Part shown: positions 24,886 through 26,769 of the stretch, piece by piece
Layout: every line of letters starts with the position of its first letter
Numbering within the stretch: position 1 is the stretch's first letter
Source: Methanobacteriota archaeon
Lineage (GTDB): Archaea; Thermoplasmatota; E2; DHVEG-1
NCBI GenBank assembly: GCA_963769885.1
Contig: CAVYNH010000006.1
Span: 544,001-608,000 of the forward strand
DNA: 64,000 nt
Direction of reading: 5' to 3'
The notes under the pieces: model-generated
Databases searched by the model: none
Seen by the model: only the letters and a program-made list of their open reading frames with translations
Told to the model about the DNA's origin: nothing
Made by a program: the position numbers and the translations under genes

Positions 24886-25353
24886 TTATGGTCGTGCGGG
24901 ACCGGCGTCTTCGAATCCTTCGCGAAGGCCGTGTCCTGCGTTTTTCGTTAATGATTCTGGGTGGTAGAGTAAGGCGATGACGTTGCGGGCGTGTTCCCGG
25001 GCGCGGTTTATCGCCAGCGTATGAAGTTCCTTGTCGTTGGTGGCTTCGTCGAGGTGGACGAAGACTTCGATGATGTGCTTGCCGACGAAGATTTGGGTAA
25101 GGATGAGGCCGAGGCTGGCTTCGTGGGCACATTGCTTGTCGATGGGCTGGGCGCCGGGCATGCCGAGGGCCATGATGATGTCGCAGTGTTCAGTGTCGAA
25201 GAGGATCTTGCAGGCGGCGGGAAGGTCTTTGATGCCGGGGACGGTGCGCCGGACGATCTTGAAACCCGTTGCTTGGGCGTGGAGTTCGTCGATGGCGGCT
25301 TTTGCCATGTCGACGCGGCTGAAGGTGGTGTCAACGACGCCGATGCGCTGCGT
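24886..25353 (-). CDS. ribC: archaeal riboflavin synthase; probable ACG start codon
   Basis: Conserved N-terminus [15 protein letters not shown] lies upstream of the first ATG (25308). ACG at 25353 is 8 nt after AGGAGGT. Also [25 protein letters not shown]. Confidence 0.9.
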
Positions 25354-25807
25354 GGCGTTCGACCTCCTTCATTTTTTGTTGGAATTCGTGGGCGGCGATG
25401 ACTTTTTGGATGATGCGTCGGGTGCCGTTGAGGTCGCCTTCGCCGGGGTATTTGGGGAGGCGGACGACTTTTGCGGTGAGTCCGCGTTTTTTGAGTTCGG
25501 TGGTGATGTCGGCTTCGTTGTGGAGTTGGTCGAAGCCCAGCGCGATGATGTCGGGTTTGATCTGTTTAACGATGGCGTACATGTCGTCTTTGCTGCCGAT
25601 GTAGGCGTCGTTGACGATTTTGAGTTCTTTGATGAGGCTGAGGCGGATGTCTTGGGGGGTGACGGGCTCGTGTTTGAGGCGGCGGACGGTCGCATCGGTG
25701 GCGACGACGACGACGAGCTTGTCGCCGAGCTTCTTGGCTTCTTTTAAGAAGAAGATGTGGCCCATGTGCAGGAGGTCGAAGGTGCCGGTGGCCATTACGG
25801 TGACCAT
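25331..25807 (-). CDS. ribL: archaeal FAD synthase (FMN adenylyltransferase)
   Basis: [28 protein letters not shown]; position within the rib operon. Confidence 0.93.
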
Positions 25808-26499
25808 ATGTTCCAGGCCTCGATGATCTCCCTGCCTTCGAGGTAGGTGAGGTGGTGGTCTTTGGCGTATTGTTGTGCTTGGAGTCTTTGGAGGGCTTTG
25901 CCGGAGTCTCCCATCATCTCGCAGCCGGTGCCGATGGGGGTGAGGCCGGCCATGGTGAGGAGGGCGACGGTGAGTTCGGTGTGGCCTTGGCGGGTGGCGA
26001 CGAGGCCGGGGGTGGCGGCGCAGATGGGGACGTGGCCGGGTGAGCGGAAGAGGCTGCCGAAGCGGGTCTGGGCGGCTTGGGGGCTGAGGCGTTGGACTTG
26101 TGCGGCGAGCTCGGCGAAGGATTTGATGGTGAGGCTGCGGTCGTTGTCGGTGATGCCGGTGAAGGTCTTGCGGTGGTTGATGGATAGTGAGAAGGAGGAT
26201 TTGGTGTCGTAGGGGATGTCGTTGGGGACGAGGGCTTTGAGGACGGGGTGTTCTTGTTGTGCGGTGGTGTAGAGGTCGGTGAGGAAGGGGAGTCCGAGGT
26301 GAGAGGCGATGTTGGGGGCGACCATGAGGATGATGAGGCCGCCGCCGTCTTTGCGCATCTGGCGGATGGCGTCTGGGGTGGCGTACTGGGCGGCCATGAC
26401 GAGGTCGGTTTCGCCTTCGCGGCTGGCGCTGTCGAAGATTTGGATGAAGCGGCCGTTGCGGAGGTCCTCTGCGGCTTGTTGGAGGGTTGTGGTGAGAAT
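25795..26499 (-). CDS. ribB: 3,4-dihydroxy-2-butanone-4-phosphate synthase; probable ATT (or ATC) start
   Basis: Conserved AAEDLRNGRFIQIFDSASREGETDLV lies upstream of the first ATG (26397). No ATG/GTG/TTG in frame back to the stop at 26551. Also SSFSLSINHR, TGITDNDR, FRSPGHV, RQGHTE, CEMM. Confidence 0.9.
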   Translation of the reverse strand: MLTTTLQQAAEDLRNGRFIQIFDSASREGETDLVMAAQYATPDAIRQMRKDGGGLIILMVAPNIASHLGLPFLTDLYTTAQQEHPVLKALVPNDIPYDTKSSFSLSINHRKTFTGITDNDRSLTIKSFAELAAQVQRLSPQAAQTRFGSLFRSPGHVPICAATPGLVATRQGHTELTVALLTMAGLTPIGTGCEMMGDSGKALQRLQAQQYAKDHHLTYLEGREIIEAWNIWSP

Positions 26500-26550
26500 G
26501 ATGTGCCACCCAGGGTGTGGAAATACCGGGGGAAAATAAAAGTTGGGGTG

Positions 26551-26769
26551 CTACTCAGAAATGGGTGGGCTGGTTATGTGTTTGTTGTGGGAGACGACGT
26601 AGCGGGTGGCGTAGCCGGCGATGCGGTTGCGCAGGAGGTTGGTGCTGCCGGTGGTGAGTTCGGCGACTTTATGTTTATTGTTCTGGAAGTCGGTGGTGAA
26701 CTGTTCCGGATATCTCTTGACGAGTTCGATGGCGACGTTCTTGATGTGGGACGATCTGATGTTTCCCAG
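26551..26769 (-). CDS. rps17e: 30S ribosomal protein S17e (eS17); CTG start, absent from the ORF track
   Basis: Manual translation: (M)GNIRSSHIKNVAIELVKRYPEQFTTDFQNNKHKVAELTTGSTNLLRNRIAGYATRY... containing the eS17 signature RNRIAGY. GGGTGA SD-like motif 4 nt before CTG. Confidence 0.93.
   Translation of the reverse strand: MGNIRSSHIKNVAIELVKRYPEQFTTDFQNNKHKVAELTTGSTNLLRNRIAGYATRYVVSHNKHITSPPISE

Follow-up and report, generated by a model that had tools for sequence, protein, structure and literature searches.

The window analysed here is a stretch of 64,000 nucleotides (G000:C6:544001–608000) from a 2.09-Mb genome in seven contigs (G000) that belongs to a family of Thermoplasmatota. It carries on its minus strand five genes in the order eS17 (rps17e), ribB, a ribL-like gene, ribC, and ribH, three of which, eS17, ribB, and ribC, appear to begin at codons other than ATG, GTG, or TTG. 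Positions given below are those of the window unless contig C6 or C7 is stated. The identity of all five genes is confirmed by Pfam. In eS17, ribB, and ribC no canonical start codon is found between the upstream stop codon and the conserved N-terminus, and each of these genes has orthologues in which a canonical start stands at that codon or next to it. A Shine-Dalgarno (SD) sequence complementary to the 3′ end of 16S rRNA, which reads ...GGATCACCTCC in G000, stands at working distance before eS17 and ribC, ribB having only GGTG. In eS17 the start codon is more strongly conserved than a sense codon would be, in ribB the non-canonical start is shared within the genus, and the ACG of ribC is confined to G000 and a ~97% identical strain.

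Start codons of eS17, ribB, and ribC

The eS17 coding sequence (26769–26551, minus strand) comprises 72 codons and the stop codon TAG (26553–26551). Its frame opens after TAA and contains no ATG, GTG, or TTG anywhere up to the TAG. Profile PF00833 (Ribosomal_S17e) matches with 43.8 bits against a cut-off of 22.8, and profile positions 2–58 align with residues 2–58, so that the CTG at 26769–26767 corresponds to profile position 1. This CTG stands 3 nt behind GGTGAT (26778–26773), which is complementary to the 16S 3′ end with an aligned SD spacing of 7. Farther upstream, a TATA box (TTTAAATA, 26807–26814, minus strand), preceded by a stretch resembling the transcription factor B recognition element (BRE), is the putative promoter as judged by the archaeal consensus, and the sequence CCAAAGT-TTTATATAA, ~40 nt upstream of the CTG, is conserved across 34 related eS17 loci. 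An RNA structure was considered for the conserved stretch upstream of the SD; from the alignment, and the stretch not having been folded, it is better read as BRE/TATA plus proximal promoter.

A profile search for eS17 yielded 80 species-level loci, 71 of which carry CTG, always behind GGTGAT. The ATG and TTG starts among the 80 include those of second copies in CTG-bearing genomes, of other Thermoplasmata, and of the Thermococcus and Bathyarchaeia outgroups. Arranged by taxonomy, the start is CTG in 18/18 sampled genomes of the family, TTG or GTG in families f2, f3, and f4, and ATG in f5. At codon 1 all of 70 loci have CTG, whereas the conserved residues Leu16, Leu46, and Leu47 are encoded by CTG in 5, 5, and 11 of the 70, respectively, with six synonymous codons in use; silent sites in the Gly, Asn, Ile, and Arg codons next to the start also vary freely. 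The invariance of this CTG while the other leucine codons drift indicates that codon 1 of eS17 behaves as a start codon and not as a sense leucine codon. GGTGAT is likewise invariant, in 34/34 aligned loci, and its spacer to the CTG is 3 or 4 nt, so that the hexamer is in frame only in some genomes; since its frame varies relative to the coding sequence, GGTGAT acts as an SD site and not as codons. As far as these alignments can tell, the CUG of eS17 is a selected weak start, apparently derived from the weak UUG of the sister families and fixed since the base of the family, and weak starts of this kind may tune expression. More than one eS17 gene can be present in a genome. The complete relative G003 has three (joined coordinates 1731305, 695422, and 423920), namely the CTG copy beside ribB and two divergent copies with ATG and TTG, and two copies occur in several other genomes of the family.

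The ribB gene, encoding 3,4-dihydroxy-2-butanone 4-phosphate (DHBP) synthase, runs on the minus strand from 26502 or 26499 to 25795 and ends with TAA (25797–25795). The upstream TAG, which is the eS17 stop codon, and the first ATG of ribB (26397) are separated by 51 codons, none of them a canonical start. PF00926 (DHBP_synthase) matches with 181 bits, profile positions 1–190 of 191 corresponding to residues 8–228 counted from the ATC at 26502, and the first ATG is residue 36, that is, 28 residues after the start of the domain. The candidate start codons are ATC (26502–26500) and ATT (26499–26497). They lie behind GGGTGG (26511–26506), an SD-like sequence that matches the SD consensus in just 4 nt (GGTG), at spacings of 6 to ATC and 9 to ATT. 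An independent assembly of the same genus (G001) has ATT ATT at the same place, GGTGGAG in the SD position, and no canonical ribB start. Across the family, ribB lacks a canonical start in 7/18 genomes and has ATG or TTG within one or two codons in 11/18, and sister families have ATG. Further irregularities are seen in relatives. In genomes G008 and G014 an in-frame TAG or TGA takes the place of the TTG or ATG that precedes GGT GAA TTT ATA in other members of the family; ribB in these two would have to start further in, possibly at the conserved ATA. In the sister-family genomes G023 and G024 the start reads A-TGG-GGT-GAA and A-CGG-GGT-GAA, as if an extra G in the G-run had shifted ATG or ACG out of frame, which may reflect either an error in the homopolymer or one more unusual start.

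Between the eS17 stop codon and ribB lies a BRE/TATA-like element, TTTTATTTT (26541–26533, minus strand), that is kept in relatives, its counterpart AAATTTATTTTA following the eS17 stop in most of them. This element is probably the ribB promoter and possibly an oligo-T terminator of eS17, and its presence suggests that eS17 and ribB–ribH are probably two transcription units. A first-pass annotation of this DNA had described a single rps17e-ribB-ribL-ribC-ribH operon, of which the gene order stands and the single transcription unit probably does not. The distance from the centre of the TATA-like element to the ribB start is ~36 nt here, corresponding to a short leader, and ~25 nt in G003 and others, a leaderless mRNA being expected at ~25–27 nt. 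A search with Rfam models over 24300–27000 found no riboswitch or leader.

The ribL-like cytidylyltransferase gene (25807–25331, minus strand; PF01467 match) has an ordinary ATG (25807–25805) and overlaps the end of ribB by 13 nt (25807–25795) and the start of ribC by 23 nt. The ribH gene for lumazine synthase (24856–24434, minus strand; PF00885, 120 bits) also begins with an ordinary ATG (24856–24854). Between them, ribC (25353–24886, minus strand) encodes a protein of the archaeal riboflavin-synthase type, having the fold of 6,7-dimethyl-8-ribityllumazine (DMRL) synthase, or lumazine synthase, that matches PF00885 with 50 bits (profile 2–135, residues 2–129). It is presumably the riboflavin synthase of the archaeal family, a PF00885-fold protein distinct from RibH and encoded beside ribB, ribL, and ribH. 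The ACG at 25353–25351 lies five codons after an in-frame TGA and at profile position 1, the first ATG being residue 16, and is preceded within ribL by AGGAGGT (25368–25362), a 7-nt SD match at an aligned spacing of 9. The base that distinguishes ACG from ATG is the third position of a His codon in the ribL frame, which is CAC here and CAT in the sister species, a silent difference.

The three starts had been put forward in the first-pass annotation, and reading of the minus strand together with the Pfam alignments confirms them: eS17 has no canonical start and opens with CTG right after GGTGAT; the RibB N-terminus extends upstream of the first ATG, with ATC 26502 and ATT 26499 behind GGGTGG as the only candidates; and RibC opens with ACG 25353 behind AGGAGGT, the change being silent in ribL, as the sister species also shows. 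An earlier placement of the eS17 end at 26574 is corrected, the stop codon ending at 26551. Alignment of orthologous starts, proposed in the same annotation as a check, shows the eS17 and ribB starts to be non-canonical in relatives too and the ribC start to be ATG or GTG in 11/11 relatives, G001 included.

The ribC start was also compared with that of a ~97% identical strain represented in contigs of three wetland runs (9.3-kb contig, depth 37; 69 differences over 2.4 kb). Among the differences listed (complete up to 25872, as far as the counts indicate), 25348 and 25379 are present and none falls at 25351–25353. Fragments identical to G000 also occur in the wetland runs, the start codons lying outside their reach. 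Between the strains ribC has 25 nucleotide and 9 amino acid differences, the changes are mostly silent, and the open reading frame (ORF) is intact, indicating that the gene is still under purifying selection. From these comparisons the ribC ACG is evidently young, arising at strain or species level, and not conserved; it would be the product of a recent T-to-C change, silent in ribL and along the C-ending codon bias of G000. The coding strand of the rib genes has a strong bias to codons ending in C or A. With sense codons of this type, the antisense (plus-strand) frames at 24400–26800 are nearly stop-free, containing false ORFs of 120–240 residues with RNY-like (purine–any base–pyrimidine) codons that would mislead gene finders.

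Non-canonical starts in the genome and its relatives

Stop-to-stop ORFs of G000 were compared with those of G003 (1.79 Mb, 30% GC) by BLASTP, antisense shadows were removed, and ORFs with 8 or more residues aligned ahead of their first canonical codon were read by hand. At least 14 curated genes of G000, or ~1.2% of 1140 conserved ORFs, start with ATC, ATT, ATA, CTG, or ACG. These comprise eS17, ribB, and ribC and 11 further genes. Six of these apparently start with ATC. One encodes an ABC ATPase whose Walker A motif precedes the first canonical codon, and the others are the gene for a B12-radical SAM protein, rpoH, pdxT, a zinc-ribbon gene, and a saccharopine-dehydrogenase-like gene. A glutaredoxin gene with no canonical codon at all has ATT behind GGAGGTGA, uppS and a T2SSF-like gene have ATA, and a UPF0227 hydrolase and a thioredoxin have CTG. 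The Pfam domain starts upstream of the first canonical codon in most of the 14, and the T2SSF-like and thioredoxin genes, in which it begins downstream of that codon, are weak cases. A further ORF, outside the window at G000:C6:265115 (plus strand), has 213 codons from an ACG behind GGGAGGT and no canonical codon in 233 open codons; its product is OB-fold-like with a signal-peptide-like beginning, and no homologue was found in G003.

In G003 the ORFs of at least 100 bits number 742 and include 14 convincing cases, and eS17 brings the count to 15 (~2%). Three of its genes have ACG exactly where G000 has ATG. In 8 genomes belonging to 7 genera rpoH has ATC in place of the ATG, and six genomes start pdxT with ATC or ATA. 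Ancestrally, and in most of the order, pdxT begins with an ATG that overlaps the end of pdxS as ATGGTAA (TGG-TAA). In several genera a silent GGA-to-GGC change in pdxS makes this ATG into CTG, and these genera carry ATA three codons on.

As a control, the same pipeline was applied to a sister-family genome (G027, 792 kb), in which 1 convincing case (CTG) was found among 451. The pooled count for the family, 24/1638, differs from that of the control with Fisher P = 0.027, and for G003 alone P = 0.013. Of the 29 curated starts, 19 lie behind an SD match of 5 nt or more, compared with ~31% of canonical genes (P = 1e-4), and 13 behind a match of 6 nt or more, compared with 13%. At a rate of 1.2–2%, the chance probability of three such starts in five adjacent genes is ~2e-5 to 8e-5. 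All three local codons are ATG with one change to C, a change also contained in 11/14 curated starts of G000; the extreme C bias of the rib stretch is the probable reason for the local excess. The suggestion of the first-pass annotation that this lineage may have relaxed, SD-driven start selection is supported by these counts and by the over-representation of SD sites, and the genome-wide scan for other non-canonical starts that it recommended yielded at least 14 cases in G000 and 15 in G003.

Two approaches were abandoned in the course of this survey. A genome-wide scan of the codons following GGTGAT was useless, GGT-GAT being common inside genes and the antisense frames of C-biased genes being open, and selecting the codon with the best SD in each gene was too noisy to give codon frequencies. 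ORFs rejected from the screen included alignments running a few residues into the 5′ untranslated region, antisense shadow ORFs, translations of tRNA and rRNA, the C-terminus of S11 read in the rpoD frame, and UbiA, in which GTG fits the profile start. An RPA-like and an HdrB-like ORF were rejected as true frameshifts. The RPA-like gene (G000:C7, minus-oriented 325265–326603) is split by a missing A in GAAAAGAG and the HdrB-like CCG-domain gene (G000:C6, minus-oriented 132614–133496) by an extra C in TACCGCC. Both splits are either long-read assembly errors or real frameshifts, and the assembly is not free of error.

Initiator tRNA and the stringency of start selection

The only initiator tRNA of G000 (C6:132516–132591, minus strand) has A1:U72 and the GGG/CCC anticodon stem, and its position 33, almost universally U, is C. 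A search for a further initiator-like tRNA of different anticodon found none. The C33 anticodon arm, which is GGGCCCAUAACCC in G000, G003, G001, and others, occurs in 61/67 genomes of the family, in 2/4 of the sister family, in 0/77 of six other families of the class, and in 1/1 of f11. The U33 arm is found in 0/71 genomes of the family and sister family together and in 48/81 genomes of the other families. In G000 and G001, which are of the same genus, A3 and A4 stand opposite G70 and C69, giving two adjacent mismatches in the acceptor stem, which in other genera is paired (AGCGGGG/CCCCGCU).

The stringency of start codon selection is thought to be set by initiation factor 1 (e/aIF1), the initiator tRNA, and the modified nucleoside N6-threonylcarbamoyladenosine at position 37 (t6A37). 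C33 is otherwise known from the initiator tRNAs of multicellular eukaryotes, and the E. coli and yeast enzymes that make t6A37 treat it as an anti-determinant (PMC8887486). In yeast lacking t6A, initiation at UUG, ACG, and GUG is doubled, t6A37 being regarded as a guard against the reading of near-cognate codons by the initiator tRNA (PMC4717488). By analogy, reduced or altered modification of a C33 tRNA is a plausible cause of laxer start selection in the present family. That the order-wide C33 makes start selection less stringent, for instance through impaired t6A37 formation, is a more speculative proposal. A full sequence of events can be offered only tentatively and is rather doubtful: C33 would have replaced U33, little or no t6A37 would be formed if archaeal Sua5/KEOPS rejects C33, and the repertoire of CUG, AUH, and ACG starts would thereby have been opened, in parallel to multicellular eukaryotes. 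The family constitutes a natural lineage in which an altered initiator tRNA anticodon loop and measurable near-cognate use occur together, beside sister lineages with U33, and the role of position 33 is therefore directly testable in archaeal in vitro initiation systems.

Interpretation and rival explanations

The genes for eS17, RibB, and RibC are likely intact and translated from the near-cognate start codons CUG, AUC or AUU, and ACG, respectively, as an SD-guided trait of this lineage within the Thermoplasmatota. Initiation would occur at these codons, and with methionine, the ordinary methionyl initiator tRNA (anticodon CAU) reading all of them. For eS17 and RibC, the duplex between the SD and the 16S 3′ end would position the start codon, and RibB would be translated from a short leader with a weak SD. 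In the family as a whole, ~1–2% of conserved genes would start at AUH, CUG, or ACG, such starts being gained, kept, and lost over evolution.

A number of observations weigh against this reading. The ribB start is ATC or ATT, and the sequence does not choose between them. Persistence of the ribC ACG in the ~97% strain is deduced from the lack of a listed difference at 25351–25353. Taken alone, G000 (10/896) does not differ significantly from the control (1/451; P = 0.11), the control is one partial genome of 792 kb, and the curated lists depend on hand-reading of alignments. The enrichment of SD sites is partly circular, the SD having helped to choose the codon in some cases. The first-pass annotation had proposed inspecting aIF1 and aIF2 for changes in fidelity residues; in aIF1 none is obvious, the basic loop DKRRYGK and the rest of the protein being nearly the same in the family as in its sister family. 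C33, too, is shared with that sister family, which retains TTG in eS17 and seems to have few non-canonical starts, indicating that C33 is not sufficient. Some of these points favour an alternative in which the initiation apparatus is ordinary, near-cognate codons behind a good SD are tolerated, at low efficiency, in prokaryotes generally, mutation pressure (towards C-ending codons in G000, towards AT in relatives) and drift in small populations erode ATG and TTG, and the excess of cases arises from the search method. The alternative gains from the sameness of aIF1, from the C33 of a sister family with few cases, from the modest significance of the contrast with the control, from the changes to C by which the local codons and 11/14 curated starts depart from ATG, and from the ribC change, which is silent in ribL and follows the codon bias. 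It is possible, although it is less probable than a lineage trait: the eS17 CTG is invariant throughout the family while synonymous sites saturate, which indicates selection, the ATC of rpoH is kept in 7 genera, the AT-rich G003 has even more cases, including the C-containing CTG and ACG, and strong SD sites are enriched at these starts.

The remaining alternatives concern the individual genes. For RibC, translation might be coupled to termination and re-initiation at the end of ribL, whose TGA (25333–25331) lies 18–22 nt downstream of the ACG, in which case it would matter little which start codon is present, or a C-to-U change in the RNA might restore AUG. The 23-nt overlap of ribL and ribC and the location of the SD within ribL are in keeping with coupling, which is common in overlapping archaeal genes. 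Coupling still requires a codon read by the initiator tRNA, however, and complements near-cognate initiation without replacing it; neither coupling nor editing can explain eS17, ribB, or the monocistronic cases, and we know of no C-to-U mRNA editing system in archaea. Both are unlikely as the explanation sought. It is less likely still that the first downstream canonical codon is used and shortened proteins are made, or that RibC (and eS17) are decaying pseudogenes. In-frame ATG codons do exist in ribB (residue 36) and ribC (residue 16), and ribC changes more between strains (5.4% of nucleotides) than ribH (0.5%), but eS17, a universal archaeal ribosomal protein, has no canonical codon to fall back on, shortening would remove 28 residues from the Pfam domain of RibB and 15 from that of RibC, both conserved in all relatives, the upstream codons stay open and keep strong coding bias, and the ribC strain differences are mostly silent. 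Least credible of all is the proposition that sequencing or assembly errors created the odd codons and that the true genome has ATG, GTG, or TTG. Homopolymer frameshifts split at least two conserved genes of the assembly, so that some base errors are possible, a point that also counts against near-cognate initiation, and the ribC ACG is unique among 12 genomes compared. Nevertheless, CTG is present in every independent assembly from the family, ribB is non-canonical in G001 too, the ~97% strain contigs of three other runs have no listed difference at the ACG, and substitutions are not the type of error seen in this assembly. These findings support the argument of the first-pass annotation that three errors landing on start codons would be unlikely.

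Near-cognate starts are a known exception in other organisms, and it is their frequency, the depth of their conservation, and their tRNA correlate that are unusual here. Rare bacterial initiators covered by translation table 11 include the AUU of E. coli infC and pcnB and cases of CUG, AUC, and AUA, and the weak start of infC is kept for autoregulation. The present cases resemble these in having a single near-cognate codon behind an SD, read by initiator tRNA in a weak initiation that selection can keep. They differ in that one or two genes per genome (~0.1%) are involved in those bacteria and ~1–2% of conserved genes in this family, in that the organism is an archaeon with aIF1, aIF1A, and aIF2, in that ACG, unlisted in table 11, is included, and in that the CUG of eS17 is fixed across a family. 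In Deinococcus deserti, according to the part of the report drawn on here (PMC2830850), ATC and CTG starts in several conserved genes were overlooked by gene callers and recognised by upstream homology, as in the present case. That organism is a bacterium, and its starts were supported by proteomics of N-terminal peptides, whereas those described here are deduced from sequence; the same part of the report mentions no initiator tRNA link and no case fixed throughout a family.

Eukaryotes share with this archaeon the initiation core of e/aIF1, 1A, and 2, the near-cognate set CUG, ACG, GUG, and AUU, and a C33 that is restricted to initiator tRNA. They select the start by scanning and Kozak context, in contrast to the SD used here. 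Yeast deficient in t6A offers a further likeness, loss of t6A37 raising the use of non-AUG starts (PMC4717488). Plant organelles with C-to-U editing similarly have a genomic ACG where homologues have ATG, but such editing needs dedicated machinery and does not cover CTG and ATC. In the literature, no report was found of an archaeal lineage, including Marine Benthic Group D (MBG-D), with non-canonical starts at such frequency or of ACG starts in archaea, nor of a CUG fixed across a family on a ribosomal protein or of an archaeal initiator tRNA with C33. The fixed CUG of eS17 is a clear-cut example, in an archaeal ribosomal protein, of a weak start under selection.

Gene callers of the Prodigal type accept only ATG, GTG, and TTG. 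Among 5.8 billion public proteins, relatives of this eS17 form only 57 clusters, and 12 of the 12 clusters read begin with VIxLGNIR or MIxLGNIR from a codon overlapping the SD, or are chance extensions from an upstream ATG. The mis-start codon is GTG where the SD hexamer is GGTGAT, and the true form is absent among the clusters read. The prediction of the first-pass annotation that gene callers would miss or truncate these genes is thus borne out for eS17, which in the clusters read is present only in mis-started forms. Universal markers (eS17 and RpoH) and the enzymes RibB, RibC, and PdxT would accordingly be reported as missing or truncated in these widespread sediment archaea, distorting completeness scores and metabolic reconstructions.

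Upstream of eS17 in the window, the rib genes have a neighbour of different composition. The region 26964–30530 (plus strand), with flanks to ~31000, is an AT-rich island of 38–42% GC, compared with 55–60% around it. The island encodes a secreted subtilisin-like protease of 1188 residues, in which PKD-like repeats and a poly-Gly run are combined with a membrane anchor at the C-terminus. Its codon usage is ordinary, and by its sequence the island looks like foreign or differently expressed DNA beside the C-biased rib genes.

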